DNA of 56,491 nucleotides, from positions 1 to 56,491 of the forward strand of contig JBBTWV010000002.1 in the NCBI GenBank assembly GCA_038062615.1, in the 5' to 3' direction. Below, one piece after another: positions 18,701-45,088 of the stretch. A program made the position numbers and the translations under genes. Positions within the stretch are counted from its first letter, which is position 1; each line of letters opens with the position of its first letter. This DNA is from Patescibacteria group bacterium. GTDB lineage: Bacteria > Patescibacteriota > Gracilibacteria > UBA1369 > UM-FILTER-53-11. The notes beneath the pieces were generated by a model. That model ran no database searches, was not told the DNA's origin, and was given only the letters and a program-made list of their open reading frames with translations.

Positions 18701-18841
18701 AGTTCTCTAACAGGCCAAGCCGCAGCTCGAGCCAAGGCGAAGATGCCGAATCAAGAAGATTCGGCTTGGCTAAGCAATTAACTCGCCCAAATGATGCTAA
18801 GGCATCAAGCAGAGCAAGCGGCGATGAGGGCGAAACTTCGG
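18701..18841 (+). repeat. Family B nested-hairpin repeat (B1), inserted into a duplicated pyrE 5' fragment
   Basis: TAACAGGCCAAGCCG...CGGCTTGGCTAAGCAATTAACTCGCCC...GAGGGCGAAAC matches the reverse complement of B2-B4. It is absent from the otherwise identical site at 24035/24036. Confidence 0.7.
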
Positions 18842-18874
18842 CTCAAGAAATCGCCGTGTCTCCTTTGGAAAATT

Positions 18875-20317
18875 ATGAATCCTATTTCTCTCGCCGATTT
18901 TAAAACGGCCCATGAGCCAAGAGCTTACGTTAATTCGAGCATTCGCTTTCATCATGAATTCTCGCAGCGCGAACGTCTTAAAGCCGCGCAAAAAGCCGGC
19001 TGGAATGTTTTTCAATTTCCTTCAGAAATGCTGAAAGGAGGTGATCTGCTCTCCGATTCGGGAACAACGACCATGACGGTGGAACAAGTTGCCGCGATGT
19101 TTCTTGGCGATGAAGCTTACGGAAGCAATTACGGCTATTTCCAGCTTCTTGAAACTTTTGAAGAAGTATTCGGAATTCCTTCCCAACAAACTGAAGTTTT
19201 TTTCTTCCATCAAGGCCGGGCGGCCGAACATGCTCTCTTTTCACAAATTGGAAAATTTGGCGAGCACCTCATTATTCCCAGCAACGGTCATTTTGATACC
19301 ACCCGTGCCAACATAGAAAATAATCGCATTGCGGCAAAAGATTGTTTTTCGCCACAACTTCATTCAAAGCAAACGGCACCTTTTAAAGGAAATATGGATT
19401 TGGCGGTTTTAGAGCGGATTCTGCAGGAAAATTCCCAAAATATTCCTCTTGTTTATGTCACTATCACCAACAACAGCGGCGGCGGGCAGCCGGTTTCGCT
19501 GGCCAATATAAAGGCTGTAAGAAAACTTTGCGACCACTATGCTAAGCCGTTATTTTTGGATGCCTGCCGTTTTGCCGAAAACTCTTGGTTTATTAAAGCT
19601 CGCGAAAAAGAATACGCCGGCAGAACCGTCCGAAATATTGTAAAAGAAATTTTCGCCCTCTGCGACGGATTTACCATCTCTCTCAAAAAGGACGGCTTGG
19701 CCAACATGGGAGGTGCGCTTGTCATCAAAAAAAAGAGTCCGCTTGTAGGTGAGCATCCGCGCCTTTTAAATGATATTCGGGATCATCAAATTCTCACCGA
19801 AGGTCATCCCACCTACGGCGGCCTTTCCGGCCGTGACATTATGACGCTTTGTGTGGGGCTTAAAACGGCCGTTACCGAGCAGTATCTCAAAAGCCGCATC
19901 GGTTTGGTGCATGAATTCGGACGCATGCTTAAAAAGGCAAAAGTTCCCGTACTGGAACCTTTTGGCGGACATGCCATATATTTAGATATGGACAAATTTT
20001 TTGTTAAAACCAAGCATCAGCGTGCGGATTTTGGCGGTATTGCTTTCACCGGTTTGTTGCTCCTCAAGGGCGTTCGTCTTTGCGAACTCGGCGCTTTTGC
20101 TTTTGGGGAAAATCATCCTCATAATTTTGTCCGCGCGGCGGTTCCCCGCAATAAATACGAACTGGAAGATCTTGCCTATGTTGCCGATTGCATCCAGGGG
20201 CTTTATGAAAAACGCCGCGAAATTCCGCGGGCCGTTCCGGTATATGGCCGCGACTTAACACTTCGCCATTTTAAGGCGAGGTTTAAGCTGGAGGCTTTTT
20301 CCTCATTAGTTAGCTGA
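18875..20317 (+). CDS. Beta-eliminating lyase (tryptophanase / tyrosine phenol-lyase family), PLP-dependent
   Basis: DLLSDSGTTTM, GDEAYGS, HQGRAAEH, and a PLP-lysine context SLKKDGLANMGGAL resembling TnaA. The tracked ORF start (18791) runs through repeat B1, so the ATG at 18875 (MNPISLADF) is preferred. Confidence 0.85.
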   Translation: MNPISLADFKTAHEPRAYVNSSIRFHHEFSQRERLKAAQKAGWNVFQFPSEMLKGGDLLSDSGTTTMTVEQVAAMFLGDEAYGSNYGYFQLLETFEEVFGIPSQQTEVFFFHQGRAAEHALFSQIGKFGEHLIIPSNGHFDTTRANIENNRIAAKDCFSPQLHSKQTAPFKGNMDLAVLERILQENSQNIPLVYVTITNNSGGGQPVSLANIKAVRKLCDHYAKPLFLDACRFAENSWFIKAREKEYAGRTVRNIVKEIFALCDGFTISLKKDGLANMGGALVIKKKSPLVGEHPRLLNDIRDHQILTEGHPTYGGLSGRDIMTLCVGLKTAVTEQYLKSRIGLVHEFGRMLKKAKVPVLEPFGGHAIYLDMDKFFVKTKHQRADFGGIAFTGLLLLKGVRLCELGAFAFGENHPHNFVRAAVPRNKYELEDLAYVADCIQGLYEKRREIPRAVPVYGRDLTLRHFKARFKLEAFSSLVS

Positions 20318-20414
20318 TTTCTCCCTGTTAGGCTCTTAGGGAATCTCTGAAAAACATCTTGCAAGCTGCGATTATTGTATTTTGGCCGCAAACACCTATT
20401 CGCAAAATAAAAGT

Positions 20415-20443
20415 TTGCACTAACGCTGCTAGTGCGCTATAAT
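20415..20443 (+). promoter_or_regulatory. Promoter TTGCAC-17 nt-TATAAT with inverted repeat GCACTA/TAGTGC in the spacer; ATG 6 nt after the -10
   Basis: TTGCAC at 20415-20420, TATAAT at 20438-20443, ATG at 20450. Confidence 0.55.
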
Positions 20444-20449
20444 ACGCCT

Positions 20450-20677
20450 ATGTCGAATCTTACCATCCGTATCAATGAAAATTTAAAGAAGAAGGCTGCA
20501 AAAGAAGCAGGCAAGCTTGGCATATCCCTTACGTTTGTGGTGATTAATGCCCTTAACCATTTTATTGAATCACCTAAAATTACCATTGGCGAACCGGAAG
20601 ATGTTATGGTGACCCCTGATCTTCAAAAGAGCATGGATACCATTGGCAGGCTGATATCCAAAAAGCAGCGTAAATGA
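20450..20677 (+). CDS. RelB/DinJ-type ribbon-helix-helix antitoxin
   Basis: MSNLTIRINENLKKKAAKEAGKLGISLTFVVINAL is typical of an RHH N-terminus. Its stop overlaps the next ATG (ATGA). The tracked GTG start at 20432 lies inside the promoter. Confidence 0.7.
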   Translation: MSNLTIRINENLKKKAAKEAGKLGISLTFVVINALNHFIESPKITIGEPEDVMVTPDLQKSMDTIGRLISKKQRK

Positions 20678-21054
20678 GACTCATCCTTACTGATTCAATC
20701 AAAAAGAGTGAGCTCTCGCCGCTGGAGAAGGTTTTTCCGTTGAAAGTCATTCAAATTGCTGCACGGAAAGCGCTTTTAGGGCTGGGGGAATCCATAAAAA
20801 ATCCCATGAAAGTTCCTTTTACTTGCCTCAAAAAACTTTATCTGACAGGAACAAGCGGCGCAGGGCGCGTCATCTTTTTACTGCTTACCAATGAACAGCA
20901 ATCTGTCTTGGTAATGCTCAGGCACAAAAATGACAAAAAAATCGGGGCAAACATGGCGATACAAAATCCGCGATTTAAGGGACTTTTGGAACGGAATTTA
21001 AACCTTATTGCCAAGGATCTTCAAAACGGTAAATTTGAAGCCAGCGAAATTTGA
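20674..21054 (+). CDS. Putative RelE/ParE-superfamily toxin
   Basis: 126 aa, coupled to the antitoxin. GAGRVIFLLLTNEQQSVLVMLRHKND resembles the RelE/ParE beta-strand plus hR(K) pattern. The assignment is tentative. Confidence 0.55.
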   Translation: MRLILTDSIKKSELSPLEKVFPLKVIQIAARKALLGLGESIKNPMKVPFTCLKKLYLTGTSGAGRVIFLLLTNEQQSVLVMLRHKNDKKIGANMAIQNPRFKGLLERNLNLIAKDLQNGKFEASEI

Positions 21055-21072
21055 TTATCTCGGCCTTCTTTT

Positions 21073-22731
21073 TCAGGAAGCTTTTGGCTTTCGCCTGTCA
21101 ATTTCCGCACTTGCTTCTTTCCATATCTCATCGCACGGATGCTTACCACCCCAAGGATTAAATCTTTCTGTGACTTTATCAAGTTCTTCATCGCTCATGT
21201 GTGATTCAATGATATGCTTTGACCACAAATACCAGGCCGTGTACAGGTTGGTATGCAGCAATACATTTACAAGAATTTTTCTGGCTTCTTCCTCGGAAGT
21301 TGTGCAAGCCCTTATTCTTGCCACCGTGTTATCAATGAATTTTCCGTCAGGTTCCTTGTCCCTCAACTCGGCGGTAAGGTCGCGAATTTTTTTATAATTT
21401 CTATCTCGAGCTTCCTGGCTCTTAACCTCACGGTGTGCCACAAGTGATCCTGCACGTTTTTCTAAAATGCTCTCGGCGTCCAGTCCTCTTGTCCGACATT
21501 CGGCGATGGCGGCCTGGGCAACGCGATCGCTCGTGGTATATAGGGCTATCTCTGCCAACAGCTCGTTCGTCAAAACAGGCTCATAATTTTGCAATTCATC
21601 CCAGACTGCCTCACACGTTTCTAGATCTTCACACCAAACAAAGAAAGTTTTTAGCATGTGCAGAAAGTCCGTGCCTTCATCAAAAGATTCCATGATCATG
21701 TGGAGGAGCGCACATGCGGAATAGGCATGGGTCGCGGCATGGAACTGGTCTACTAAGAATGTCCGATGTAAGCCTACATGCTCCTCGGTTGCTGTGGCAT
21801 GCCATTCTCTCGCTACTCCTCGATAATAATCAAAGGTGATTTCAGTTCTGATGCTTTGTGCACGGGCTAACATGAACCTTTGATATGGAGGAGATACGGC
21901 GGCGAGCACTTCAAGGACTTGTCTTCTCCCATGATTCACCAAGGCAGAGCTTTTATCCACAACCGCAAGAGCGCTCTCGCCAACTCCTTCCGTCATGGAT
22001 GCAATATCGGCGGTTTCATAAGTGGGCTCCGCAGGAGGTTCCATCCCTTGCTCCAAAAAACTTTCCTGGTAGGTAAGGCTATCTCTCAAATCCAAAAGAT
22101 CGCCTATCCTTGGAAATTCCTCAGTATTGCTACCAACTTTTTGTAAAATTCTTTCGGCAACGCGTCTTCGCTCATCATCATCCATTTTAAATTTATAGCG
22201 CGTTTCTATAATTCCTATCGCCGGTCTCCTACTATGGAGGTTGTTCTCAATCTGCTTGAGTAAATCAACAAATGCTTGAGTGAGCCGTTCCGCAAAATCT
22301 TTTTCTGGAGTGTAAGGTTTCATATCCATATCGGTGGATAGTGGTCTAAGCTTTTGGCGGTGCACAGCCAAGTCCACAAAGTCTTGCGGTGCATGGACCG
22401 TAAGGTTGGAAACCTGCTGCTCACTTATTAATTTCAAAACAGTTCCGATAGTTGAAATATCTTTTGTAGATATTACTTTTTCGCCTATTTTGTCCCATTC
22501 AACGGTTCGAATTTCTTCCATTTGCAAATTCAGTATTTCGCCAACAGCGTAATGTCCCACCAGCATGCTCATTTCGAGGCTATAATCAGCTATTAGGTTA
22601 TTAATTTCCAATATGGTTTTTTGATATGCAGTTAAGGTAGTTGGGTGTTCTCTTTGCTCTGTTACAAGTTTTTGTGCGGTCGTAGAGATTTCGATGAGTT
22701 TTCTCATCCCTCTTATTAAATAATTCAGCAA
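21073..22731 (-). CDS. Orphan protein, cassette copy 2 (paralog of 15956-17773), N-terminally disrupted by a frameshift
   Basis: 552-aa ORF from an internal TTG. The homologous ATG is at 22781 in another frame. One extra C in the C5 run (22755-22759) would restore MDKPSGETPQIPDKLEPLLNYL, which aligns with copy 1. Confidence 0.7.
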   Translation of the reverse strand: MLNYLIRGMRKLIEISTTAQKLVTEQREHPTTLTAYQKTILEINNLIADYSLEMSMLVGHYAVGEILNLQMEEIRTVEWDKIGEKVISTKDISTIGTVLKLISEQQVSNLTVHAPQDFVDLAVHRQKLRPLSTDMDMKPYTPEKDFAERLTQAFVDLLKQIENNLHSRRPAIGIIETRYKFKMDDDERRRVAERILQKVGSNTEEFPRIGDLLDLRDSLTYQESFLEQGMEPPAEPTYETADIASMTEGVGESALAVVDKSSALVNHGRRQVLEVLAAVSPPYQRFMLARAQSIRTEITFDYYRGVAREWHATATEEHVGLHRTFLVDQFHAATHAYSACALLHMIMESFDEGTDFLHMLKTFFVWCEDLETCEAVWDELQNYEPVLTNELLAEIALYTTSDRVAQAAIAECRTRGLDAESILEKRAGSLVAHREVKSQEARDRNYKKIRDLTAELRDKEPDGKFIDNTVARIRACTTSEEEARKILVNVLLHTNLYTAWYLWSKHIIESHMSDEELDKVTERFNPWGGKHPCDEIWKEASAEIDRRKPKAS

Positions 22732-22781
22732 TGGCTCAAGCTTGTCTGGGATTTGGGGGTTTCACCAGATGGCTTGTCCAT

Positions 22782-22935
22782 AAGGTGCATATTAAACACT
22801 AAATTAACAGATAAGTCAACAGGTTCGTAACCTGTTATGTCTGATGGTAGGTTTTAAAACTGGGTTGGCGACTCAGAATCAATTGATGTTCAAAATCGTA
22901 TGGAGTAACATAAGGGTGTAACAATCTTACTCCCT
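22782..22935. promoter_or_regulatory. Divergent promoter/operator region of cassette copy 2
   Basis: Conserved TTGACT (22819-22814), 17 nt, TTTAAT (22796-22791). Operator-like motifs at 22902-22909 and 22913-22922, and inverted at 22926-22935. Confidence 0.5.
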
Positions 22936-23268
22936 ATGAACACCCCCCGCAAAAAAGTAAAAGCCAAATACGCTATCAAACTCAAACATTTTCCTGTTTG
23001 TCCTCAATTTGGATCTGCGTTTTTTGGCTCAGGGAAAAGACCTCGGAAGAAAGTAAATTTTATGGTGAATATGGATCTTTTGGAAGCCATAACATTTTTG
23101 GTCCCTTCGGGTAGCAGGAGCGAATTTGTAAATGAAGCCGTGGAAGAAGCTCTCAGGGATTTTGCCCGAAGAAAAGCAATAGAGGCGATGGATGAATTTC
23201 GTAGGAAAAATAAATGGAAAATGACGGACGAAGAAATTCGTAAAGCTATCAATTATGGTCGCAAATAG
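22936..23268 (+). CDS. Ribbon-helix-helix (CopG/VapB-like) antitoxin, copy 2
   Basis: Paralog of 17918-18253 (KKVNFMVNMDLLEAI...GSRSEFVNEAVEEAL). Intact. Confidence 0.8.
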   Translation: MNTPRKKVKAKYAIKLKHFPVCPQFGSAFFGSGKRPRKKVNFMVNMDLLEAITFLVPSGSRSEFVNEAVEEALRDFARRKAIEAMDEFRRKNKWKMTDEEIRKAINYGRK

Positions 23269-23695
23269 GCCGCTCTTCATTGTTGATGCCTCTGTGATTT
23301 TAAAGTGGTTCCTCTTTGAGCCGGATTCCCAGGAACAGTCACTCCATCTCCGGCGAGATTATTTTGAGAGGAAGGTGGAGCTAGCTGTTCTTAACTATAC
23401 TTATGCTGAAATTTTGAATACTTTAGGGCGAATTCTCCCCCAAGAGAAAGCGCTTTCGGCCTTTTCTCAGCTGTTGATGTATCAATTGCAGTAATACCAT
23501 ACCACTATGGAATTAGCTTCGATGGGTTGCGAACTCATGAAGAATTTTTCTGGTGTCACCTTTTATGATTCTGGTTATCATGCCTTGGCTCTACAGGAAG
23601 GTGGCACATTTATAACCGCCGATGAAAAATATTTCCAAAAAACAAAGAAACAAGGCGGGGTAATGCTCTTGAAAGACTACGGCAAGAAACGCTAG
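23255..23695 (+). pseudogene. vapC: PIN-domain toxin, copy 2, interrupted by an in-frame TAA at 23492-23494
   Basis: The two ORFs 23255-23494 and 23507-23695 are in the same frame and align collinearly with copy 1. The TAA aligns with GAA (Glu) of copy 1. Confidence 0.75.
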
Positions 23696-24011
23696 GAGCT
23701 GTACGCCTTTTGCAATAATTATTTTTTATTTAATAATCCACAGGCGATAGCAAAACCTGCGCTTATTATGGCTATTCCTATGCTTGCACTTGCTGGTGCA
23801 TTTTCCCAAAGCCAAAGCGGAGCCGTTACTATATTTGCTGCAAAAAATATTGAAAGGAAAAAATAAATTTTGTGCATAAATTTAATGAAATAAAATACAA
23901 CAGTTGGTATTTTATCCTTTTTTACTATGGCGTACAACATCCGCGCCACTCGTGCCTAGAATCCAGATCTGCTAGAATACAACCATCCCAAGCTCGTTAT
24001 GCTAACAGCTC
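23696..24011. mobile_element. 316-bp insertion with 7-bp terminal inverted repeats (GAGCTGT/ACAGCTC) flanked by duplicated CTAG
   Basis: Copy 1 reads ...GAAACGCTAG|ACTGCCGCAGATG. Copy 2 reads ...GAAACGCTAG|GAGCTGT...ACAGCTC|CTAG|ACTGCCGCAGATG. Confidence 0.55.
23719..23949 (-). CDS. Small two-TM hydrophobic protein carried on the 316-bp insertion
   Basis: 76-aa ORF with two hydrophobic helices (IYFFLSIFFAANIVTAPLWLW; IGIAIISAGFAIACGLL) in a region that looks AT-rich by eye. Confidence 0.45.
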   Translation of the reverse strand: MARMLYAIVKKDKIPTVVFYFIKFMHKIYFFLSIFFAANIVTAPLWLWENAPASASIGIAIISAGFAIACGLLNKK

Positions 24012-24025
24012 CTAGACTGCCGCAG

Positions 24026-24676: not shown

Positions 24677-24690
24677 GGACCTCTCGTATT

Positions 24691-26154: not shown

Positions 26155-26954
26155 AGGGAAGAGAAATGCGCGAGCTTTTCCCACTCTTCAATACTCAGTG
26201 TTTCCGCGCGGCGTGTTAGTTCAATTCCGGCTTTTTTTAAAAGTTCTACGTCAAAAACGCCGCGAAGCATTTTTCGTTTGTGTGAGAATCCGCGGTGTAT
26301 ATTTTCGAAATAAGTTTTTTGCGCGACACTCGTCGTAGCTTGGTCGTGCGTCGCCGCCGGAAATTCAATTTTCAAAATAGCGGAATCCACTTTAGGCACC
26401 GGTTTAAAATTCCTGCGGGAAACAATCTTCATAATTTTAGGCACGCCAAATGTCTGTACATGAAGGGCTAAGACGTTCATGTGCGGCGGCGACGCGCATA
26501 TTTTTTCGGCAACTTCCTTTTGCACCAAAAGAACGGCACGCTGCGGAAGATTATTACTTTTACGAATAAAATGATCCAGTAGCGGAGAAGTAATGGAATA
26601 GGGAATATTGGCCACCCAGTAATAGGGGACTTGCGGTGGAGGCACATCCAGCGCATCGGCATGAATCAATTCCAAATTCCGATGCGTGTCGCGGCAAGCG
26701 GCCGCGGCTAAATTCTTCTGCATGCCAAATTCGGCTTGGAGGTGCGCAAAAAGATGGTTATCCTTTTCAATCGCTTTCACTTTCACGTTGCGCGCAAGAA
26801 GAGCCGAGGTAAGAATCCCAAATCCTGGCCCCACCTCCACCACCAATGCTCCCGCAGGAAGATCGGCGTACTGCAAAATTTTCTCCACGATCATGGGTTG
26901 GATAAGAAAATTTTGACCGAAAGATTTTTTAGGATGAAATTCGCGCAGTTGCAT
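26151..26954 (-). CDS. rsmA: 16S rRNA (adenine1518/1519-N6)-dimethyltransferase
   Basis: KKSFGQNFL, VEVGPGFG (SAM site) and NIPYSITSP. Confidence 0.9.
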   Translation of the reverse strand: MQLREFHPKKSFGQNFLIQPMIVEKILQYADLPAGALVVEVGPGFGILTSALLARNVKVKAIEKDNHLFAHLQAEFGMQKNLAAAACRDTHRNLELIHADALDVPPPQVPYYWVANIPYSITSPLLDHFIRKSNNLPQRAVLLVQKEVAEKICASPPHMNVLALHVQTFGVPKIMKIVSRRNFKPVPKVDSAILKIEFPAATHDQATTSVAQKTYFENIHRGFSHKRKMLRGVFDVELLKKAGIELTRRAETLSIEEWEKLAHFSSL

Positions 26955-29727
26955 AATTCCTTTGAAAAAACTTGCGAACTTCTTCTACAAAAAGCATAGA
27001 AAAAGAAATAATCGCCAGTACTCCCCACTGGCTCCACGTCAGTGCCATCGTCTTAAAATACGTGTGAAAGAATGGGATCTGCACGATAGCTACCGTGGCC
27101 CCAATAGAAAACGAAATTGCCGCTAGGAGACTTGGGTTTTCAAAGAACTTCATTTTAAAGACGGATATGGTTTCGCTGCGGCTGTTGAAAACATGAACCA
27201 TTTGTAGCAAGGTAAGGACCACAAAGGCCATCGTTGCTGACTCAAAATAAAGCGTGCTTTCAATATCCACATTCCCACCAAAACTCCAGCCGTTTGCGAT
27301 GAGATTTCCTACGAACACCGCTGCCGTGGTAAGCCCAATCCAAAGCCCGCTTAACATGAATCGGCGGACAAAAGCCCCTTCCATAATTCTAACGTTTGTT
27401 TTGCGCGGAGGGCGTTCAAGAATATCTTTGTGTACGGGTTCCACGCTCAAGGCAAGAGAAGGGAAGACGTCGGTAAGCGTGTTAATCATGAGGATGAGGA
27501 CGGCCGTGAGAGGTGCCGGTAGTGCCAGCAGAATGGTAGAAAAAATAGCGATGAGCTCGCCGATGTTGGAAGAAAAAATAAAGAAAATAAATTTTCGCAT
27601 ATTTTCGTAAATGGTTCGTCCTTCAATGATCGCCGTTACGATAGTTTTAAAACTGTCATCCGCTAAAACCATATTGGCAGCTTCTTTGCTCACATCGGTG
27701 CCGGTAATACCCATGGCGATGCCAATGTCTGCTCGCGCGAGCGACGGCGCGTCATTTACGCCGTCGCCGGTTACCGCCACCACTTCGCCGGCACGCTTGA
27801 GGGTGTCCACAATACGGAGTTTATGTTCCGGGCTCACGCGTGCAAAAATAGTTTCTTGCCCTTTTGCCACAAAGTCCAAAAGTTTCTCATCAGAAATTTT
27901 ATCCAGCATTTCTCCGGTAAGAATGTGCACTCCAAACGATTTCACGAGCCCCAGTTCTTTAGCAATGGCATGAGCAGTGAGTCCGTGATCACCGGTAATA
28001 ATAAATACGCGAATGCCGGCTTTGTGGGTCAATTTAATGGCTTCTTTAACCTCTTCTCGGGGAGGGTCAATCATAGCCATAACTCCCAAAAAAATGAGGT
28101 TCGACTCAATTTCTTTCTCCTCATAATGTTTTTTATTCGGCACGGAAATTTTCTTATAAGCCACGGCAATAGTTCTCAGGGCACGATTGGCCATGAGATC
28201 CGTTCGCTTGAGGAGCTCCTCCCGAAGAGTGGCATCGAGCGGAACCATTTTATCGCCCTTCATCATATGGCTGCAGAGGGGTAAAAGCCCATCCGGAGCA
28301 CCTTTGGTAAAAGCCAAAACTTCTCCCGTTGCCCGTTCTTTTACGACAAGAGACATGCGTTTGCGCCCGGCATCAAACGGAATCTCTTGAATCCGCTCAT
28401 ATTTTTTATGTATTTCTTCAGTCACAAAACCGGCTTTCTCAGCCGCTGTAAGTAGTGCCCCTTCGGTAGGATCTCCCAAAATGGACCAGGTATCATCCTT
28501 ATTCACCAGCTTGGCATTATTGTTAAGGATGTTTGTGGTCATGGCCAGTTCCAGATGTTGGTAAAATGCGGGCTGTTCCTTTGTAAGTTTTTTTTGATTT
28601 TCATGATCGAATTCAAAATATTCCAATAGGCCGAGCCGTGGCGAGGCTAAGCCAATACTGCCCCGACCTGATGTCGGGGAAACCTTCTCTTTGGCTCCTG
28701 AATGATGAACAGAAAAGCCTCCCTTGGGTTCATAGCCGATTCCGCGGACCGTAACATCATAATCTCCCAAAAAGATCTCCTGGACCGTCATCTCATTTTT
28801 GGTGAGAGTGCCTGTTTTATCGCTGCAAATAACCGTTGTGGAGCCAAGCGTTTCTACGGAAGAAAGCTGTTTAACAATGGCATTTTCTTTAGCCAGCCGC
28901 TGTACTCCGAGCGCTAGCGCCACCGTAATGGTTGCCGGAAGGCCTTCTGGTACCGCCGCCACAGCGACGGCAACCGCAAAGAGAATGGTATCAATCAGTT
29001 CTCGACCTTGTATAAAAAACCCAATGAGAAAAAGAACGAGCGAAAGTACAAGCGTAATTTTCCCTACAAAAACTCCAAGATGGATTAGTTCTTTTTGCAA
29101 AGGACTCTTATCCTTTTCTGTTTCACTCGTGAGGCGGGCAATCTTTCCAAATTCAGTATGCATGCCAGTTTGCATCACCACCGCCTGGCCGTTGCCATGC
29201 GTCACCTGCGTTCCCATAAATATTTTTTTATTTTTCTGAGAATCTTTCCTTACCGGCACCGACTCACCCGTTAAAATGGCTTCATCAACGCGAATATCGT
29301 GATCCTCAAGAATATGCCCATCCGCCGGTATTTTATCGCCTTCATTTAAAATAATGATATCGCCGGGTACAAGTTGAGTGGCATCAATGAGGATCTCGGT
29401 GCCGTCGCGCTTCACTCGCGCTTTGGGTGAGAGCAATTTTTTAAGAGCGCTAATGGCTTTCTCTGCTTTATATCCCTGAATAAACCCAATACTGGCATTC
29501 AAAATAACGATGCCGATGATAATGGAACCATCAATTTTTTCTCCGGCGATGTAAGCAAAAGCGGCCGCCACGATCAAAATAATTACGAGCAGATCTTTAA
29601 ATTGCGCAAAAAATTGCAGAATGAGCGGAGTCCTCCGCTTTTCTTGTATAAGATTGAGACCGAATTTCTTAAGAAGCGAGGCGGCTTCAACCGAGGTAAG
29701 TCCGGTCGTCAGATTTTTTTCTTTCAT
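26929..29727 (-). CDS. P-type (P2, Ca2+/cation-transporting) ATPase
   Basis: TGES, the DKTGTLT phosphorylation site and the TGDGVNDAP hinge. 932 aa with about 10 TM segments. Confidence 0.9.
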   Translation of the reverse strand: MKEKNLTTGLTSVEAASLLKKFGLNLIQEKRRTPLILQFFAQFKDLLVIILIVAAAFAYIAGEKIDGSIIIGIVILNASIGFIQGYKAEKAISALKKLLSPKARVKRDGTEILIDATQLVPGDIIILNEGDKIPADGHILEDHDIRVDEAILTGESVPVRKDSQKNKKIFMGTQVTHGNGQAVVMQTGMHTEFGKIARLTSETEKDKSPLQKELIHLGVFVGKITLVLSLVLFLIGFFIQGRELIDTILFAVAVAVAAVPEGLPATITVALALGVQRLAKENAIVKQLSSVETLGSTTVICSDKTGTLTKNEMTVQEIFLGDYDVTVRGIGYEPKGGFSVHHSGAKEKVSPTSGRGSIGLASPRLGLLEYFEFDHENQKKLTKEQPAFYQHLELAMTTNILNNNAKLVNKDDTWSILGDPTEGALLTAAEKAGFVTEEIHKKYERIQEIPFDAGRKRMSLVVKERATGEVLAFTKGAPDGLLPLCSHMMKGDKMVPLDATLREELLKRTDLMANRALRTIAVAYKKISVPNKKHYEEKEIESNLIFLGVMAMIDPPREEVKEAIKLTHKAGIRVFIITGDHGLTAHAIAKELGLVKSFGVHILTGEMLDKISDEKLLDFVAKGQETIFARVSPEHKLRIVDTLKRAGEVVAVTGDGVNDAPSLARADIGIAMGITGTDVSKEAANMVLADDSFKTIVTAIIEGRTIYENMRKFIFFIFSSNIGELIAIFSTILLALPAPLTAVLILMINTLTDVFPSLALSVEPVHKDILERPPRKTNVRIMEGAFVRRFMLSGLWIGLTTAAVFVGNLIANGWSFGGNVDIESTLYFESATMAFVVLTLLQMVHVFNSRSETISVFKMKFFENPSLLAAISFSIGATVAIVQIPFFHTYFKTMALTWSQWGVLAIISFSMLFVEEVRKFFQRNYATARISS

Positions 29728-35941: not shown

Positions 35942-35963
35942 AAAAAAATAAAAATTAGATGTT

Positions 35964-35983
35964 TGTCGCCCATGCAGGCGACA
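35964..35983 (-). other. Intercistronic hairpin (TGTCGCC-6 nt-GGCGACA) between rpsK and rpsD, followed on the mRNA strand by a U-rich run
   Basis: Perfect 7-bp stem. On the minus strand the downstream sequence is AACATCTAATTTTTATTTTTTT, then the ATG of rpsD. Confidence 0.4.
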
Positions 35984-35994
35984 TGATGCGAAGG

Positions 35995-36522
35995 CTAGAC
36001 GCGGCGTGCCTTACGAGGACGGCAGCCATTGTGAGCAATAGCTGTTTTATCACTAATAGTTTCAATAGAAACTCCAGAAGCACTTACGGCTCTTACCGCT
36101 TGGTCGCGTCCGGATCCCGTGCCTTTTACAGAAACATGAACTCGTTCCACGCCTAATGCCTTGGCTTTTGTAAGCGCTGTTTCAGCTGCCACCGAAGCAG
36201 CATAAGGCGTCGCTTTTCTCGTGCCTTTAAATCCGCATGAACCCGAAGATGCCCAGCAGACCACATTCCCATTCATCTCAGTCACCGTTACAATCGTATT
36301 GTTGTAACTGGCCTGAACCGTAACCATAGCCTCGGTAAGGCTATGCTTTTTGGACTTCTTCTTGCGCTTCTTGGCACCAGCTTCATCCTCGCCGCTTGCT
36401 CGGTTTGATGCCTGAGCATCATCGCCTCCTTCGGCTGCAGCACCTTCCGTGGTTGCGGATGGCGCATCTTTTGCAGGGGCATCAGCTGGAGCAACACTTG
36501 GTTTTTTGGGTTCTTCTGCCAT
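35995..36522 (-). CDS. rpsK: 30S ribosomal protein S11 with ~50-aa Ala/Glu/Lys-rich N-terminal extension
   Basis: Core VQASYNNTIVTVTEMNGNVVCWASSGSCGFKGTRKATPYAA... Confidence 0.9.
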   Translation of the reverse strand: MAEEPKKPSVAPADAPAKDAPSATTEGAAAEGGDDAQASNRASGEDEAGAKKRKKKSKKHSLTEAMVTVQASYNNTIVTVTEMNGNVVCWASSGSCGFKGTRKATPYAASVAAETALTKAKALGVERVHVSVKGTGSGRDQAVRAVSASGVSIETISDKTAIAHNGCRPRKARRV

Positions 36523-36535
36523 AAAAAATTTGAGT

Positions 36536-36627
36536 GGTTGCGCCCTTCAGGCGCAGTTATTGGTTTAGCCTCGCTAGAGTCATCTATGCAGATGACATGA
36601 TGCTGAGGCATCAGGCTCGGCCTGTTA
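36536..36627 (-). repeat. Family B nested-hairpin repeat (B2) filling the rpsM-rpsK spacer
   Basis: GGTTGCGCCCTTCAGGCGCAGTTATTGGTTTAGCCTCGC...GGCTCGGCCTGTTA. The TTA at 36625-36627 is the complement of the rpsM stop codon. Confidence 0.7.
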
Positions 36628-36999: not shown

Positions 37000-37014
37000 A
37001 AGGAGAGAGATAGA

Positions 37015-38267: not shown

Positions 38268-38287
38268 AGAATTTGTGTGCACAGGCC

Positions 38288-38944: not shown

Positions 38945-38946
38945 AG

Positions 38947-38983
38947 CAGGGTACAGGGTACAGGGCCCAGGGTATGAGGGTCA
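38947..38983 (+). repeat. Tandem heptad CAGGGTA x ~4.5 giving five GGG tracts (G-quadruplex-type motif on the plus strand)
   Basis: GGG at 38949-51, 38956-58, 38963-65, 38970-72 and 38978-80, with 4-5 nt loops. It starts 2 nt from the adk start codon. Confidence 0.6.
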
Positions 38984-39056
38984 ATCCCGGAAAATATTTT
39001 CTTCTTATAGGTAGCACGGCCTGGCGGCCCTGTCCGAAAAAAATACGCAATCGCCA

Positions 39057-40352: not shown

Positions 40353-40356
40353 GGGT

Positions 40357-40851
40357 TTATTTTGCCTCAGATGGGGCCTTGGAAGCAACAGTCTTTTGAG
40401 ATGCTCCAGAAAGCACGATGGTTCCGTTTTTCGCTTCAATTTTTTGCTTGGCGGATGCGGAACAGGCATCAACTTTTACCGTAAGCTTCTTTTGGACTTC
40501 TCCGTCACCCAAAATTTTAACCGGCAAGTTTTTGCGTGAAACCAGCTTCTGCTCATAAAGAGCGATGAGATCAACCGTCATACCTTCGTCAAACACATTC
40601 AAGTCGGCAACATTCACTACTTGGAAAGGCACGCGGTTAGGATTGTTGAACCCTTTGAGCTTTGGAAGGCGTCGGAGGAGAGGAGTCTGTCCTCCTTCAA
40701 AACCCTGCTTAACACGTCCACCAGAACGAGATTTTTGGCCTTTAACGCCTCGTCCGGAATACGAACCTCTACCAGAACCGTCTCCGCGTCCTGCTGCGCG
40801 GGCGAATCTGTGAGCACCTGCCTGTGGTTTAAGGGTGTGATGTCCAATCAT
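40357..40851 (-). CDS. rplO: 50S ribosomal protein L15
   Basis: GRGDGSGRGSYSGRGVKGQKSRSGG...FEGGQTPLLRRLPK. Overlaps the rpsE stop by 4 nt. Confidence 0.9.
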   Translation of the reverse strand: MIGHHTLKPQAGAHRFARAAGRGDGSGRGSYSGRGVKGQKSRSGGRVKQGFEGGQTPLLRRLPKLKGFNNPNRVPFQVVNVADLNVFDEGMTVDLIALYEQKLVSRKNLPVKILGDGEVQKKLTVKVDACSASAKQKIEAKNGTIVLSGASQKTVASKAPSEAK

Positions 40852-41489
40852 ACAGTGGGTTTTTTCATGGGTTTAAGTTGCCCAAGCGCAATCATCATAG
40901 CTTGTGCATTGGTAATTCGATTTCTGGCGCCGAACATTTTGCTGAGCATATTTTTAATTCCGGCTAGTTCTGCAATTTTACGAACGGCACCGCCGGCAAT
41001 AATTCCTGTACCAGGGCTGGCTGGCATCATAAAAATTTTAGCGCTCTTAAACTTTACCGTGACGTCATGCGGTATAGTGCCGTTTTTGAGCGGAACCACC
41101 ACCATGTCTTTTTTGGCCTGAGTGATAGCTTTTTGGATGGCACCGACGACTTCGTGGGATTTTCCAATACCAATGCCCACTTTACCCTTTCTGTTGCCAA
41201 CAACCACGGTGGCGCGGAAACGCAAACGGCGTCCTCCTTTTACTACGCGCGTTACACGATCAATTTGCAAAACTTCTTCTTCATATTCGGAAGGTTCTCT
41301 TCTGCCTCCACGTCCACCGTGGCCCCCGCCTGGACCTCCGCGTCCTCCTCCGGGTCCTCCGCGTCCATGCCCACCACCCGGACCACCACGCCCGCCGCCA
41401 CCTGGTCCTCCGCGCTTGCCTGCCGGTAGGCTAGTTCCGCGTTGGGGTGCTGCTCCTGCTGCCGGTACATTACTTTTCTGTTGTTCCAT
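40848..41489 (-). CDS. rpsE: 30S ribosomal protein S5 with Gly/Arg/Pro-repeat N-terminal extension
   Basis: Core IDRVTRVVKGGRRLRFRATVVVGNRKGKVGIGIGKSHEV. The N-terminus has GGPGGG(H/R)G repeats. Confidence 0.9.
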   Translation of the reverse strand: MEQQKSNVPAAGAAPQRGTSLPAGKRGGPGGGGRGGPGGGHGRGGPGGGRGGPGGGHGGRGGRREPSEYEEEVLQIDRVTRVVKGGRRLRFRATVVVGNRKGKVGIGIGKSHEVVGAIQKAITQAKKDMVVVPLKNGTIPHDVTVKFKSAKIFMMPASPGTGIIAGGAVRKIAELAGIKNMLSKMFGARNRITNAQAMMIALGQLKPMKKPTV

Positions 41490-41505
41490 AAGATTTTAGA
41501 ATTAC

Positions 41506-41535
41506 ATTCTTGATTCCTGACTCCTGATTCTTGAC
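41506..41535 (-). repeat. Family E purine-rich repeat copy 2, in the rplR-rpsE spacer
   Basis: The minus strand reads GTCAAGAATCAGGAGTCAGGAATCAAGAAT. It shares the exact 13-mer CAGGAATCAAGAA with 3367-3379. Confidence 0.5.
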
Positions 41536-41883
41536 TCAGAACACAAGGCCGCCTTCACGTGCGCCATCGGCGAGTGCTTTTACGCGACCATGATATTTAT
41601 AGCCGTTTCGATCAAATACACAAGTTTTTACGCCTTTTTCGAGAGCCTTTTTAGCCAGTTCCATACCGACTTTTTTAGCACGCTCGGTCTTGGTGCCTTG
41701 CTTAATGAAAGCACTATCGCTCGCAGCAGCAACCACAAGCCCTTTGGCATCGTTCACTAATTGAGCGTAATTTTTCTTAAGACTTCGGAAAACCACGAGC
41801 CGCGGACGAGTTTCTGAGCCTTCTATGCGGGCACGGATTCGGATGTGTCTTCTTTCGCGTTTGAGGAACTTCTTATTGTTCAT
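41536..41883 (-). CDS. rplR: 50S ribosomal protein L18
   Basis: MNNKKFLKRERRHIRIRARIEGSETRPRLVVFRS... The tracked start at 41961 reads through repeat C1. Confidence 0.9.
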   Translation of the reverse strand: MNNKKFLKRERRHIRIRARIEGSETRPRLVVFRSLKKNYAQLVNDAKGLVVAAASDSAFIKQGTKTERAKKVGMELAKKALEKGVKTCVFDRNGYKYHGRVKALADGAREGGLVF

Positions 41884-41961
41884 AATGTTTACGCTCGTCT
41901 GCGCTCGAACCGGCAAAGCCGGATTCTCGCTTGCCTCGCGGCGCCGCTGTGCGGCGCTCAT
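41884..41961 (-). repeat. Family C structured repeat (C1), abutting the rplR start codon
   Basis: AATGTTTACGCTCG...CCGGCAAAGCCGG...GCGCCGCTGTGCGGCGCTCAT aligns with 55789-55868. Confidence 0.7.
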
Positions 41962-41996
41962 AAGGCGCTAGACTGTTAATAAATAGTTAACTTCTT

Positions 41997-42563
41997 CTAC
42001 GCACCGCCTTTAGCGGCGGCTGTAGCGGCTTTTCCGGCCTTGCGGCGGATTTGCTCGCCAAGATAACGAATACCTTTTCCTTTATAAGGTTCTGGTGGAC
42101 GGAGTCCTCGAAGCTCGGAAGCCACTTGGCCCACCAAACTTTTATCAATGCCGGAAACCGTGATGATGTTCTTCTTTTCTTTATCAATTTCAAACAGAAT
42201 GCCTTCCTTAGCGGTGTATTCAATAGGATGAGAGAATCCAAGCGCCAGTTTGAGCTTTTTGCCTGCAATTACTTCAGCGCGGTAACCTACACCTTGAATC
42301 TCAAGTTTTTTGAAGAATCCCTTTGTGACGCCCTCAACCATGTTTGCCACCAGCGTTCGAGTAAGACCGTGGAGGCTTCGATCAAGAATTTCTTCGCTCT
42401 TGCGCTCTACGATGATTTTTCCGTCCTCAATTTTAATAACGACGCGAGCGTGAGGAGCAAAAACAAGCGTGCCCTTTGTCCCTTTTACGTTGAGCTTGCC
42501 CTCTTTAAAGGTAACTTCAACGCCGGAGGGAATGGTAACTGGTTGTTTGCCGATTCGAGACAT
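41997..42563 (-). CDS. rplF: 50S ribosomal protein L6
   Basis: MSRIGKQPVTIPSGVEVTFKEGKLNVKGTKG. The ATG at 42563 avoids overlap with rpsH. Confidence 0.9.
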   Translation of the reverse strand: MSRIGKQPVTIPSGVEVTFKEGKLNVKGTKGTLVFAPHARVVIKIEDGKIIVERKSEEILDRSLHGLTRTLVANMVEGVTKGFFKKLEIQGVGYRAEVIAGKKLKLALGFSHPIEYTAKEGILFEIDKEKKNIITVSGIDKSLVGQVASELRGLRPPEPYKGKGIRYLGEQIRRKAGKAATAAAKGGA

Positions 42564-42574
42564 AAAAAATTTTC

Positions 42575-42958
42575 TTAATATACTTCGCAAAGGAATTCAC
42601 CGCCAACTTTTTGCTTACGGGCTTCTTCGCCAGGCAAGATACCGCGGGAAGTAGAAATAATAGCAATGCCTTGGCCGTTTTTAACGCGCTTGATTTTATC
42701 CCAACCCACATAAATGCGTTGGCCAGGTTTGCTGACGCGCTTGAGCTGAAGAGGTTCACCCTCCGCACGAAGCACAATGTGCAGCTCCTTGGTTTTTTCT
42801 ATGGCGACTTCCTCAACTTTTTCTAAGAAATGCTTATCCATAAGCACCTGTGCAATCGCCTTGATCATGCGAGATGATCGCACCGTAAGCTCGTGCCGTC
42901 TGGCAGAGCTGGCATTACGAATGCGTGTGAGAAAGTCTGAAATAGGATCGGTAAGCAT
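42575..42958 (-). CDS. rpsH: 30S ribosomal protein S8
   Basis: MLTDPISDFLTRIRNASSARRHELTV... Confidence 0.9.
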   Translation of the reverse strand: MLTDPISDFLTRIRNASSARRHELTVRSSRMIKAIAQVLMDKHFLEKVEEVAIEKTKELHIVLRAEGEPLQLKRVSKPGQRIYVGWDKIKRVKNGQGIAIISTSRGILPGEEARKQKVGGEFLCEVY

Positions 42959-42972
42959 ATGGTGAAATAAAA

Positions 42973-43197
42973 TTACCAGGAAGATTTTTTAACGCCTGCA
43001 ATGAGTCCGCGCAGCGCCAGTTCGCGGAAGCAAATTCTGCAGAGATCAAAGTAGCGCATGTAACCACCGATACGTCCGCAAAGCCGGCAGCGATTATATA
43101 CCTTTGTTGGATGATGAGGCTTTTTACCGGCTGCAAGGGAACGGAGGAATTCATCCTTGAGTCGGCGGTGTTTCACTTTTAAGGCTTTTCGAGCCAT
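42973..43197 (-). CDS. rpsN: 30S ribosomal protein S14, zinc-binding (type Z-like)
   Basis: CRLCGRIGGYMRYFDLCRICFRELALRGLIAGVKKSSW, with a CxxC...CxxC pattern. Confidence 0.9.
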   Translation of the reverse strand: MARKALKVKHRRLKDEFLRSLAAGKKPHHPTKVYNRCRLCGRIGGYMRYFDLCRICFRELALRGLIAGVKKSSW

Positions 43198-43211
43198 AAA
43201 TTAAGGAGAGA

Positions 43212-43754
43212 TTAATGTTTAAAGGGGAATCCAAATGCTTTTAAAAGTTCGAGTCCTTGTTTGTCATTTTCTGCCGTGGTCTGAATGGTTATCTGAACGC
43301 CGTGAGTCTTATTAACATCATCGGCCTGAATTTCTGGGAAGACGATGTGCTCAGTAATTCCCACGGAATAATTTCCTTTTCCATCGAATGACTTTTTAGA
43401 GATGCCGCGGAAGTCACGAATACGGGGGAAAACTACATGAACCAGTTTTGTAAGAAAATCATACATGCGTTTTCCGCGGAGCGTAACAATAACGCCTGAG
43501 ACCATATTGATTTTGAGCTTAAAGTTAGAAATGGCCTTTTTGGATTTCACTATCATAGGTTTTTGGCCAGCAATCATCGTAATATTTTTGACGATTTCTT
43601 CGGGATCCTTCCCCTGTGCCACGTGACTTCCAACGCCGACGTTAATTTTGATAGCCTTAATTTTTGGCACAGCATTCCGGTTTTTGAGTCCGAGTACTTT
43701 ACTGAGCTCGGGAACCATTTCGTCGCGATAGAGTTGTTGGAGAGTTTTCTTCAT
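43212..43754 (-). CDS. rplE: 50S ribosomal protein L5
   Basis: NRNAVPKIKAIKINVGVG...RGKRMYDFLTKLV...FDGKGNYSVGI. Confidence 0.9.
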   Translation of the reverse strand: MKKTLQQLYRDEMVPELSKVLGLKNRNAVPKIKAIKINVGVGSHVAQGKDPEEIVKNITMIAGQKPMIVKSKKAISNFKLKINMVSGVIVTLRGKRMYDFLTKLVHVVFPRIRDFRGISKKSFDGKGNYSVGITEHIVFPEIQADDVNKTHGVQITIQTTAENDKQGLELLKAFGFPFKH

Positions 43755-43767
43755 AAGGGATTTAAAT

Positions 43768-43825
43768 GGTCGCGCCCTTCGGGCGCATTACTTGCTTAGC
43801 CTCGCCTCGACGGCTCGGCCTGTTA
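43768..43825 (-). repeat. Family B repeat (B3) filling the rplX-rplE spacer
   Basis: TGGTCGCGCCCTTCGGGCGCATTACTTGCTTAGCCTCGCCTCGACGGCTCGGCCTGTTA. The terminal TTA is the complement of the rplX stop codon. Confidence 0.7.
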
Positions 43826-44164
43826 AACTTTCTTCGTGTGTTTTTTCTCAACGGCTTTATCGAGGCTTTGAGAACATTTTTTGCAGACGCGCTGCTTCTT
43901 TCCTGTCTTAAGAACAATGTGGCCCACGCGCGTTGCTTTAGAACAGTGTGGACAAATCACCATGACGTTAGAGATATCAAACGGAGCTTCAAAAGTGATT
44001 TTCTGGCCAGCTTGATCGGCTTTACGCTTAATATGTTTGACGCGCATGTTGATCTTCTCAACGACGGCTTTACGATGTTTTTCGCTGACACGCATGACCT
44101 TTCCGGATTTTCCGCGATACTTTCCGGCAATTACCAACACATTGTCGCCCGTATGAACTTTCAT
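43823..44164 (-). CDS. rplX: 50S ribosomal protein L24 (with CxxC...CxxC pattern in the C-terminal part)
   Basis: [29 protein letters not shown] motif, and [11 protein letters not shown]...VCKKCSQ. Confidence 0.9.
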
Positions 44165-44529
44165 AAAACTTCAGGAGCTAAAGAAACAATTTTTTGAAAA
44201 CCTTTTTCACGGAGTTCGCGAGCCACTGGGCCAAAGACGCGAGTTCCTTTTGGTTCACCTTCCTTAGTGACAATCACGCAGGCATTGTCGTCAAAGCGAA
44301 TGTAAGATCCGTCCTTGCGTCGGATTTCTTTGTGCGTGCGGACAATAACGGCGCGTTCAATCGCCTTTTTCTTCACTTGGGCGTGTGGTGTAGCTACTTT
44401 TACAGAGACCACAATGGTGTCGCCTACCGAGGCATAACGGCGCTTGGAACCACCGAGCACCTTGATGCACTTCACGAGCTTAGCGCCGGAGTTATCGGCC
44501 ACAACGAGTCTGGTAACTTGCTGAATCAT
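44161..44529 (-). CDS. rplN: 50S ribosomal protein L14
   Basis: [37 protein letters not shown]. Confidence 0.9.
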
Positions 44530-44537
44530 GAGTAAAG

Positions 44538-44774
44538 TTAGGCTTTAGGAAGGGGAGGAACCACCGTCCAACGCTTGAGTTTGGAGAGTGGGCGCGTCTC
44601 ATAAATGGTTACTTTATCGCCGACTTGATACTTGTTCTCTGGATCGTGCGCATAGAACTTTTTAGATGAACTTACGAGTTTTTTATACTTTGGATGAGCT
44701 CTTTTGGAAGTAACTTTAACCACAAGGGTCTTTTCCATTTTGTTGCTCATGACAGTTCCAACTTTAGTTCTCAT
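44538..44774 (-). CDS. rpsQ: 30S ribosomal protein S17
   Basis: [16 protein letters not shown]...HPKYKKLV...[26 protein letters not shown]. Confidence 0.9.
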
Positions 44775-44792
44775 AAGAATTGAGGATAATTA

Positions 44793-45023
44793 CTATTTCG
44801 TTACGGCACTTTTAGCATTCTCTTTGACTTGTTCCATAGAGAGCCAGCGCTTCATGGTTTTAATACGAGCAATGTATTTGCGCAAGCTTTTTAACTTCGA
44901 CGTCTCTTTGCTCTGGCGTCCTGCAACCGAGAGTCGCAGCTTGAGCAAGTTGATCCGGCCTTTGCGGATTTCTTCAACCAGTTCTTTCTCTGTCATCTTT
45001 TTGAGTTCGTCGGGGGTAAGCAT
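44793..45023 (-). CDS. rpmC: 50S ribosomal protein L29
   Basis: LKKMTEKELVEEIRKGRINLLKLRL, in the position between rplP and rpsQ. Confidence 0.85.
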   Translation of the reverse strand: MLTPDELKKMTEKELVEEIRKGRINLLKLRLSVAGRQSKETSKLKSLRKYIARIKTMKRWLSMEQVKENAKSAVTK

Positions 45024-45027
45024 GGGG

Positions 45028-45088
45028 ATTGTTGCGCCCTGCGGGCGCGTTATTGGCTTAGCCGTCGCCTCGACGGCTAAGCCTGTTA
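45028..45088 (-). repeat. Family B repeat (B4) filling the rplP-rpmC spacer
   Basis: ATTGTTGCGCCCTGCGGGCGCGTTATTGGCTTAGCCGTCGCCTCGACGGCTAAGCCTGTTA, with a perfect 10-bp stem TTAGCCGTCG/CGACGGCTAA. The terminal TTA is the complement of the rplP stop. Confidence 0.7.

Follow-up and report, generated by a model that had tools for sequence, protein, structure and literature searches.

Rickettsia palindromic elements (RPEs), which were reportedly described by Ogata et al. in 2000, are short palindromic repeats of a reduced genome that occur both in intergenic DNA and in frame within conserved genes, where they add a short peptide. They are 105-146 bp long and lie in frame in 19 protein genes (PMC2229807). 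In this study we analysed a stretch of 56,491 nt (contig JBBTWV010000002.1 of assembly GCA_038062615.1, a Patescibacteria group bacterium), called the window hereafter, and we describe in it a repeat, Family B, which occurs in the same two settings and likewise adds a short peptide when in a gene. Like RPEs, it is patchily distributed between relatives, and neither repeat has a known mobilising enzyme. Family B is set apart by size, fold and host: an RPE forms one long stem with terminal inverted repeats of ~12 bp and lives in Alphaproteobacteria (Rickettsia), whereas Family B is ~60 bp long, forms two separate hairpins without such repeats and lives in the Candidate Phyla Radiation (CPR). In our view Family B is probably a non-autonomous miniature selfish palindromic repeat of Candidatus Peregrinibacteria (CPR/Patescibacteria), of the RPE kind, which spreads or once spread as DNA. 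Evidence for this reading comes from insertions of unit length, from presence and absence between genomes, and from occurrence in both orientations with filtering of the reading frame.

Several other groups of repeats invite comparison. REP (repetitive extragenic palindromic) sequences, with the bacterial interspersed mosaic elements (BIMEs) and REPINs, are also short GC-rich imperfect hairpins that form mosaics, follow genes within operons and keep conserved mismatches in their stems (PMC2817692, PMC3733652, PMC3116915). However, REPs are extragenic by definition, reach hundreds of copies and occur near a REP-associated tyrosine transposase (RAYT), whereas 8 of 14 Family B copies are intragenic and the copy number is modest. 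No GTAG or CGTC tag of REPs was found in the conserved alignment columns of Family B, and no RAYT or Y1 transposase among the 25 open reading frames (ORFs) of the window that were scanned with Pfam. Bacterial MITEs (miniature inverted-repeat transposable elements) with ORFs, such as the 107-bp form of Correia/NEMIS, ERIC and YPAL, are likewise non-autonomous and carry open frames that become fused to host ORFs, and in some copies hairpins in the RNA influence neighbouring transcripts (PMC2229807). These MITEs measure 100-170 bp and possess terminal inverted repeats as well as target duplications (of TA or otherwise); neither of these two features was found in Family B. Hairpin repeats and GC clusters of organelles, in the mitochondria of sponges (PMC2800124) and in Volvox (PMC2670323), similarly comprise several families which invade the spacers, and sometimes the genes, of compact genomes, but they belong to an organelle setting and their sequences are unrelated. 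Four further candidates were rejected: an integron attC site (no GTTRRRY core, wrong architecture, intragenic copies), domain V of a group II intron (too short, wrong bulge), a tRNA-derived D-arm (a resemblance of just 8 nt) and the hairpins associated with diversity-generating retroelements (wrong context). We place Family B with a known kind of element as a new family, from a phylum new to that kind, which is smaller and lacks terminal inverted repeats; the published full texts searched contained no account of such repeats in CPR.

The window holds five copies. Three of them lie on the minus strand in spacers of the ribosomal S10-spc-alpha operon, which runs on that strand from L3 (49552) to L17 (33939): B2 in the S13|S11 spacer (36536..36627), B3 in the L24|L5 spacer (43768..43825) and B4 in the L16|L29 spacer (45028..45088), the spacers being 102, 68 and 62 nt long. 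On the plus strand, B1 (18708..18840) is a composite copy between a PIN-domain gene and a gene for a beta-eliminating lyase, and B5 (28624..28683), which surfaced in mismatch searches of the window, is a 60-nt copy lying in frame and antisense within a P-type ATPase gene (26929-29727, minus). B1 to B4 had been located correctly in a preliminary description of this DNA, which also took the TAA that opens each ribosomal copy for the stop codon of the upstream gene. This is right for the TAA at 36625-36627, 43823-43825 and 45086-45088 (minus), the stops of S13, L24 and L16, respectively. The TAA of B1 (18708) is not a stop, the upstream PIN-domain gene ending with TAG at 18678-18680, 28 nt before it; the lyase gene that follows B1 probably starts at ATG 18875. 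An independent contig from a Hainich groundwater assembly matches at 99.99% identity over 14.8 kb, and an assembly artefact was therefore rejected.

The unit measures ~57-62 nt and has the form 5'-(TAA)C-AGGCCGAGCC-GYRGCGA-GGCTAAGCMAWTAR-(hairpin of 6-7 bp, GC-rich and free in sequence)-AACCTT-3'. Read in the direction of the genes, B2 is TAA-CAGGCCGAGCC-(41 nt of other hairpins)-GCGAGGCTAAACCAATAACT-GCGCCT-GAA-GGGCGC-AACC, B3 is TAA-CAGGCCGAGCC-GTCGAGGCGA-GGCTAAGCAAGTAAT-GCGCCC-GAA-GGGCGC-GACC and B4 is TAA-CAGGCTTAGCC-GTCGAGGCGAC-GGCTAAGCCAATAAC-GCGCCC-GCA-GGGCGC-AAC, while B5 reads CAAT-AGGCCGAGCC-GTGGCGA-GGCTAAGCCAATACTG-CCCCGAC-CTGAT-GTCGGGG-AAAC. B1 agrees with the other copies at both of its ends, and its hairpin 2 has the arms TCGCCC (18783-18788) and GGGCGA (18828-18833), with extra hairpin modules in both loops. 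In B2 the loop of hairpin 1 holds the ~41 nt of other modules (TGATGC-CTCA-GCATCA and GTCATC-TGCAT-AGATGAC). B1 and B2 are therefore composites, because other short hairpin modules landed in their loops. The start motif GCC(G/A)AGCC, which had been described as common to the copies, fails for B4, which starts TAACAGGCTTAGCC. The 14-mer TAACAGGCCGAGCC with up to 3 mismatches has 10 matches in the window against 3.8 expected, a number reached in none of 100 shuffles, and GCGCCC-N3-5-GGGCGC has 2 matches against 0.02 expected.

The two hairpins are conserved in different ways. In hairpin 1, GGC-CG-AGCC pairs with GGCT-AA-GCC, and the sequence is nearly invariant. In the model-fitted alignment 4 of its 8 pairs are invariant and none covaries, and 12 of 13 rows show a central C.A/G.A internal loop. 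The first stem proposed in the preliminary description thus stands with a correction, since the usual 3' arm GGCTAAGC leaves that loop open. In B4 the loop is closed as U-A/U-A and hairpin 1 becomes a perfect stem of 13 bp (GGCTTAGCCGTCG/CGACGGCTAAGCC); in B1, hairpin 1 has another register as well in which its pairing is perfect (GCCAAGCC/GGCTTGGC). Hairpin 1 is followed by the linker (A)AGCMAWTAR, which is conserved. The 6-7 GC-rich pairs of hairpin 2 differ in sequence from copy to copy, the 5' arms seen including GCGCCC, GCGCCT, GCCCAGC, GCCCCGC, CCCCGAC, GCTCCCG, ATGACA, TCGCCC and TCTCCG. Within the window it lies at 36540-36554 in B2 (GCGCCT-GAA-GGGCGC), 43772-43786 in B3 (GCGCCC-GAA-GGGCGC), 45034-45048 in B4 and 28661-28679 in B5 (CCCCGAC-CTGAT-GTCGGGG). 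The stem GCGCCC/GGGCGC that had been assigned to it is accordingly found in B3 and B4, with GCGCCT/GGGCGC in B2; the two-sided change to TCGCCC/GGGCGA in B1 does keep the pairing, as had been noticed, and is one of many in this hairpin.

The covariation of hairpin 2 was assessed in two ways. Neither MAFFT nor the first alignment by model had aligned hairpin 2 by structure. With arms anchored by hand, using the linker and the AACC tail, 58 of 60 pairs over 10 distinct stems were standard ones, while arms crossed between copies gave 3.5 of 6, and none of 20000 permutations reached the observed total. Two-sided changes affect 4 of 6 pairs in the model-fitted alignment, where 93.5% of the cells pair; the covariation score is 0.138 vs 0.046, with 0 of 500 shuffles as high, and sliding the partners by 1-3 columns makes the pairing fall to 14-37%. 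Hairpin 1 with the linker is conserved as sequence and hairpin 2 only as structure. That hairpin 2 derives from the target site was considered and rejected, as identical stems occur at unrelated sites. Folding against shuffled sequences gave z values of -2.9, -4.5, -2.3 and -7.25 for the intergenic window copies B1 to B4, and of -3.1 (B5), -3.0 (L002a), -1.6 (L002b), -1.0 (L003), -0.7 (L012) and +0.7 (L009) for the copies within genes. Three of these six scored in-gene copies (L012, L009 and L003) fold no better than shuffles, and a further copy in rpoB has lost its stems.

Four copies, annotated for both hairpins, served to build a covariance model, R1. In 167 kb it recovers 13 copies at E <= 5e-4 and nothing else; five belong to the window and eight to contigs of other Peregrinibacteria, which come from groundwater and other metagenomes. 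The scores in the window are 88.7 bits for B3 (E 6e-25), 81.9 for B4, 44.3 for B5 (E ~1e-11), 42.6 for B2 and 22.9 for B1 (E 2e-4), and R1 scored on every window position gave no copies past B1-B5. Among the copies outside, both of L002 and those of L003 and L015 all come from the metagenome-assembled genome (MAG) JACPMA01, assembly GCA_016186205.1, and those of L009 to L012 come from metagenomes, another Hainich well among these. When collections were scanned with degenerate patterns, all true copies lay in Peregrinibacteria-like contigs: the genome collection gave two true matches, both in one Peregrinibacteria MAG, and one chance match in a Brevibacillus tandem repeat, and the metagenomes gave four true matches and four chance matches in GC-rich or repetitive contigs. 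The homologues of L5 and of the ATPase are labelled Candidatus Peregrinibacteria or Patescibacteria by their sources. A search with a 45-aa concatenation of the peptide encoded by the element found no shared words. The preliminary description of a nested-hairpin repeat family, with real compensatory changes in the second stem and broadly comparable to repeats of the REP/BIME type, is supported in this respect.

The DNA past the window was taken from contig CAYIMD010000001.1 (68,959 bp; MAG GCA_964364405.1), the first 56,491 bases of which are the window. In the 8.8 kb past the window, R1 found a decayed 14th copy in the N-terminal extension of rpoB (L017 602-653, record ~64677-64728), which is ~80% identical to the consensus and in frame, with degraded hairpins. 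Just upstream of rpoB (L017 433-483) there is also a partial variant, GGCCGAGCTACGGCGAG followed by the hairpin TCGCGCC-AAGCA-GGCGCGA.

Eight of the 14 copies (13 scored and the decayed one) lie inside protein genes, in both orientations and always in an open frame; B1-B4 and the copies of L011 and L015 are intergenic. One of them is B5. The ATPase (932 aa, identified by Pfam) was aligned with 15 orthologues, 61-68% identical, and it has a single extra block of exactly 20 residues, VSPTSGRGSIGLASPRLGLL, which is the element, all orthologues having a 20-residue gap at this site. In L012 an antisense copy lies in EngA/Der, where ~19-20 residues (kvatasgsanclasprlgla) between TPF and the strand bearing DTAG are unmatched in the HMMER comparison with Der of B. 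subtilis (2hjg). L002 has one antisense copy in ProC, with ~28 extra residues relative to 2rcy, and a second one in a YfiH-like protein. Sense copies lie in an ORF resembling SAM methyltransferases (L003; labelled without a family search), N-terminally in an S41-like peptidase (L009), in a 495-aa ORF that is uncharacterised (L010) and in rpoB. Six-frame translation shows that the sense frame RPSR[SG]EAKQ.. and the antisense frame KV....[CG]LAS[PL]RLGL are open in nearly every copy. The four antisense in-gene copies read ..[CG]LAS[PL]RLGL.. and three sense copies read peptides of the RPSRSEAKQ type, while that of L010 uses the third sense frame (GRAAARLNK), which is closed in all but this copy and two more. 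An internal GGC-TAA always interrupts the frame reading TAA-CAG, and the frames bearing TAA are never used in genes. Such occurrence in both orientations within unrelated genes is expected of an insertion sequence filtered by selection, and not of an RNA element that serves an operon. Copies persist only where they do little harm, namely between a native TAA stop and the short leader of the following gene in tightly packed operons (B2, B3 and B4), in ordinary intergenic DNA, or in an open frame to which they add ~20 residues.

The same copies bear on the idea that Family B is a structured non-coding RNA or a small self-cleaving ribozyme repeated in the genome. Its layout, with a covarying hairpin next to an internal loop and a linker that are conserved, does resemble small ribozymes and riboregulators. 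However, no match to Rfam 15 reached the gathering score, and of the four weak matches obtained with E relaxed to 5 not one overlaps an element; a tRNA/tmRNA scan found none. Moreover, copies are translated through in both orientations in essential genes, where self-cleavage would be lethal, and the structure decays in several of the in-gene copies, which makes this idea extremely improbable.

The same operon was compared in four related Peregrinibacteria, whose L5 proteins are 77, 75, 73 and 70% identical. The spacers in these relatives measure 12, 4, 10 and -4 nt for L16|L29 (62 nt here), 3, 6, 35 and 9 nt for L24|L5 (68 nt here) and 17, 11, 4 and 15 nt for S13|S11 (102 nt here). None of the three spacers holds Family B in any of the four relatives, their sequences being unrelated, and R1 applied to the 20-kb loci of the relatives found zero copies anywhere in three of them. 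At the same time, L16, L24 and S13 end at the identical residue in all four relatives, and TAA is the stop in 11 of these 12 cases, L016 having TGA for L16. Because the spacers of the relatives are without the element while the protein ends match, the operon copies are lineage-specific insertions directly after a native stop and ahead of a short native leader.

For the ribosomal-operon mRNAs, roles in processing, stabilisation, decoupling or attenuation had been suggested, together with the view that unrelated spacers in related genomes would speak against the idea. The orthologous spacers of 0-35 nt in the four relatives are indeed unrelated and without the element. As to attenuation, the terminator scan gave no call on the minus strand, which is the gene strand, at the three operon sites, and the tails AACCATTTAAAT, AACAATCCCC and AACCACTCAAAT contain no T-run. 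A dedicated role in these mRNAs is therefore not supported, because the relatives' spacers lack the element and 8 of 14 copies are intragenic. The main residual alternative to a selfish element is a weaker form of the same idea, in which the operon copies have been co-opted as cis-acting RNA and now act as REP-like 3' stabilisers, as RNase III/E sites or as spacers for translational uncoupling. Their hairpins are stable (z -2.3 to -7.25), all of them are in sense orientation and start exactly at the stop with the G-poor leader of the next gene preserved downstream, and B4 has evolved its perfect 13-bp stem. In other bacteria, effects of this sort are reported for REP and Correia elements (PMC2229807). 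Yet the four relatives keep the gene order without the element in these spacers, the element also occurs in coding DNA in both orientations, there is neither a T-run nor a terminator call on the gene strand nor an Rfam match, and three cases are too few for an orientation bias. On balance we consider the co-option improbable.

The 20 nt upstream of 38 starts across the window contain 11% G, compared with 23% in the window, and form T/C-rich leaders, in which GGAG, GAGG or AGGA occurs in 4 of 38 and motifs of the CTCC-, CCTT- or TCTC-type in 15 of 38. Judging from these leaders, the Shine-Dalgarno sequence appears not to be used in these genes.

If Family B is a selfish repeat, a mechanism for its spread may be sketched. 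Hairpin 1 together with the linker would be the site recognised by a putative mobilising enzyme, possibly on single-stranded DNA in the fashion of IS200/IS605 or REP/RAYT, and hairpin 2 would be needed only as a shape, possibly also in single-stranded DNA. The operon copies, which must be transcribed, would be passengers within the polycistronic mRNA, and any effect on that mRNA would be secondary.

Several observations weigh against the selfish reading. No transposase or other mobilising gene was found among the 25 window ORFs scanned with Pfam, and neither terminal inverted repeats nor a consistent target-site duplication were found, the unit ends CAGGCC... and ...AACCTT not being complementary and the 3-nt flanks of the two sides matching only in B3 (TAA...TAA). 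The copy number is modest, with five intact copies and one decayed copy (besides the partial variant upstream of rpoB) in ~65 kb. The nearest relative is only 77% identical in L5 and no very close strain pair differing by one copy was at hand, so that recent mobility is something we infer. In addition, all four intergenic window copies point with transcription and three of them abut a stop codon exactly, either of which could reflect a selected RNA role.

Another way to account for the conserved part of the unit is that the 30-nt core is a host DNA signal, selected and not transposed, either a site for a host protein (a nucleoid or partition protein, a methyltransferase or a recombinase) or a signal for DNA uptake. 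CPR bacteria are generally thought to rely on imported DNA and nucleotides, and hairpin 1 with the linker is conserved across genomes with L5 ~70% identical, both of which would suit such a signal. However, what arrives is a complete 60-nt insertion, by which conserved proteins are lengthened, and not a match made by point mutation, the element's density of ~1 per 10 kb is far under that of known uptake sequences, three related 20-kb loci have no copies, and the covarying second hairpin is left unexplained. A host signal is therefore very unlikely.

The flank of the insertions deserves separate consideration. Five of 13 copies (B1-B4 and L003) have TAA as the 3 nt before CAGGCC, and in 9 of 13 these 3 nt differ from TAA by one mismatch at most, in a small sample in which the in-gene flanks are constrained by coding and the TAA of B2-B4 is a native stop kept in most relatives. 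The flank points to one of two things, insertion directly 3' of TAA or survival at no other offset. Palindrome-associated elements derived from IS200/IS605 (Y1 HUH) have no terminal inverted repeats or target duplication, are recognised by imperfect hairpins near their ends and insert immediately 3' of a short fixed target. In these elements the two end hairpins are alike and TnpA is present somewhere in the genome, whereas hairpin 2 of Family B is free in sequence, no TnpA was found in the scanned ORFs, and TAA flanks 5 of 13 copies. A more specific proposal would make Family B an active remnant of a transposon of the single-strand-hairpin type that targets the site immediately 3' of TAA, the one safe nucleotide between stop and next leader serving as its haven in a gene-dense CPR genome and hairpin 1 with its C.A/G.A loop being the site of an HUH-type or other enzyme. 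Three operon copies abutting a native TAA at zero offset, and two more copies with a TAA flank that is not a stop, are consistent with it, but we regard it as doubtful.

The upstream neighbour of B1 belongs to a diverged duplication (15956-18680 and 21073-23695, 71-76% identical). Each three-gene block comprises an ORF of 605/552 aa without Pfam match, an ORF of 111/110 aa and the PIN-domain toxin, and the homology ends exactly at the PIN stop. For this reason the paralogous copy of the PIN gene (23484-23695) gave no empty site for B1.

Family B is not the only hairpin repeat in this DNA. Module D (36386..36422, minus; ATGATGCTCAGGCATCAAACCGAGCAAGCGGCGAGGA) lies in frame in the N-terminal extension of S11 (DDAQASNRASGED), whose start at 36522 is confirmed by the N-termini of relatives. 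This 37-nt module (TGATGC-nnnn-GCATCA and GAGCAAGCGGCGA) is 89% identical to 18791-18827 (+), nested in hairpin 2 of B1, and its palindrome alone also occurs in B2 (36598-36613). Module C (35960..35989, minus), in the S11|S4 spacer, consists of GCATCATGTC and the hairpin GTCGCC-TGCAT-GGGCGAC. It is also present in the loop of B2 (36576-36603), where the stem is GTCATC/GATGAC vs GTCGCC/GGCGAC, a difference of two compensatory pairs. At least three further hairpin families occur in other spacers of the operon and are absent from the relatives. Evidently the genome has been colonised by miniature hairpin repeats.

Two other families may be described here. Family 'A' fills the L23|L2 and tuf|S10 spacers with nested hairpins of 81 nt each (47887-47967 and 51052-51132, minus). 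Its outer stem CATTGCGAG/CTCGCAAGG is conserved, as is the hairpin CGAAGCAA..TTGCTTCG, and the first inner hairpin differs (TCCCATCCATGGGA vs GGCCCAAAGGCC); the L23|L2 spacers of the relatives are 1-32 nt long. Family 'F' (55789-55860 and 41884-41960, minus) occupies ~75 nt in the S12|S7 and L6|L18 spacers, with a hairpin ATCTGGC-TCT-GCCAGT vs ATCCGGC-TTT-GCCGGT, which is a compensatory difference. Both copies end GAGCGTAAACATT-ATG, and since family 'F' ends in ATG the start of L18 should be 41883 (MNNKKF, 114 aa as in relatives) and not the first ATG at 41961.

Some other features of the region were noted. The rpoC|S12 spacer past the window (L017 8702-9024) consists of 323 nt of palindromes that are long and nested, such as GAACAGGCCCT..AGGGCCTGTTC and GGAAGCCACCCATTTTG..CAAAATGGGTGGCTTCC. 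At its end the SecY|Adk spacer (38945-39056, 112 nt) has CCCTGTACCCTGTACCCTG. Recurrences of the decamer GAATCAAGAA lie in the L18|S5 spacer (41490-41535), in the loop of B1 and, twice, at 3356-3379 (within 3350-3379). Extensions of low complexity are found in S5 (40848-41489), with a Gly/Arg-rich N-terminus, and in S19 (46653-47030), with an Ala/Pro-rich C-terminus, and S11 (35995-36522) has an acidic, Ala-rich N-terminus. The coding regions of S5 and L15 overlap by 4 nt, with no L30 gene between them. Between S10 and L3 the operon is interrupted by an ORF of 329 aa on the opposite strand (49698-50687, +) without Pfam match; the cargo at this junction differs in the relatives (ParE/PhdYeFM, Fic, ORF6N), and the junction looks like a variable insertion hotspot.

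Repeats such as Family B have practical consequences, as they lengthen proteins by ~20 residues, mislead the calling of start codons (L18, and the lyase after B1) and can pass for regulatory RNAs. The bipartite design and the TAA-adjacent insertions provide a handle for finding the mobilising enzyme, which has yet to be found for RPEs as well. CPR/Patescibacteria genomes, of ~1 Mb, are usually called streamlined, and here one lineage carries several families of hairpin repeats in its most expressed operon. With copies also in essential genes, among them those for the EngA/Der GTPase, the beta subunit of RNA polymerase and the P-type ATPase, this is the RPE phenomenon in an unrelated lineage of reduced genomes.

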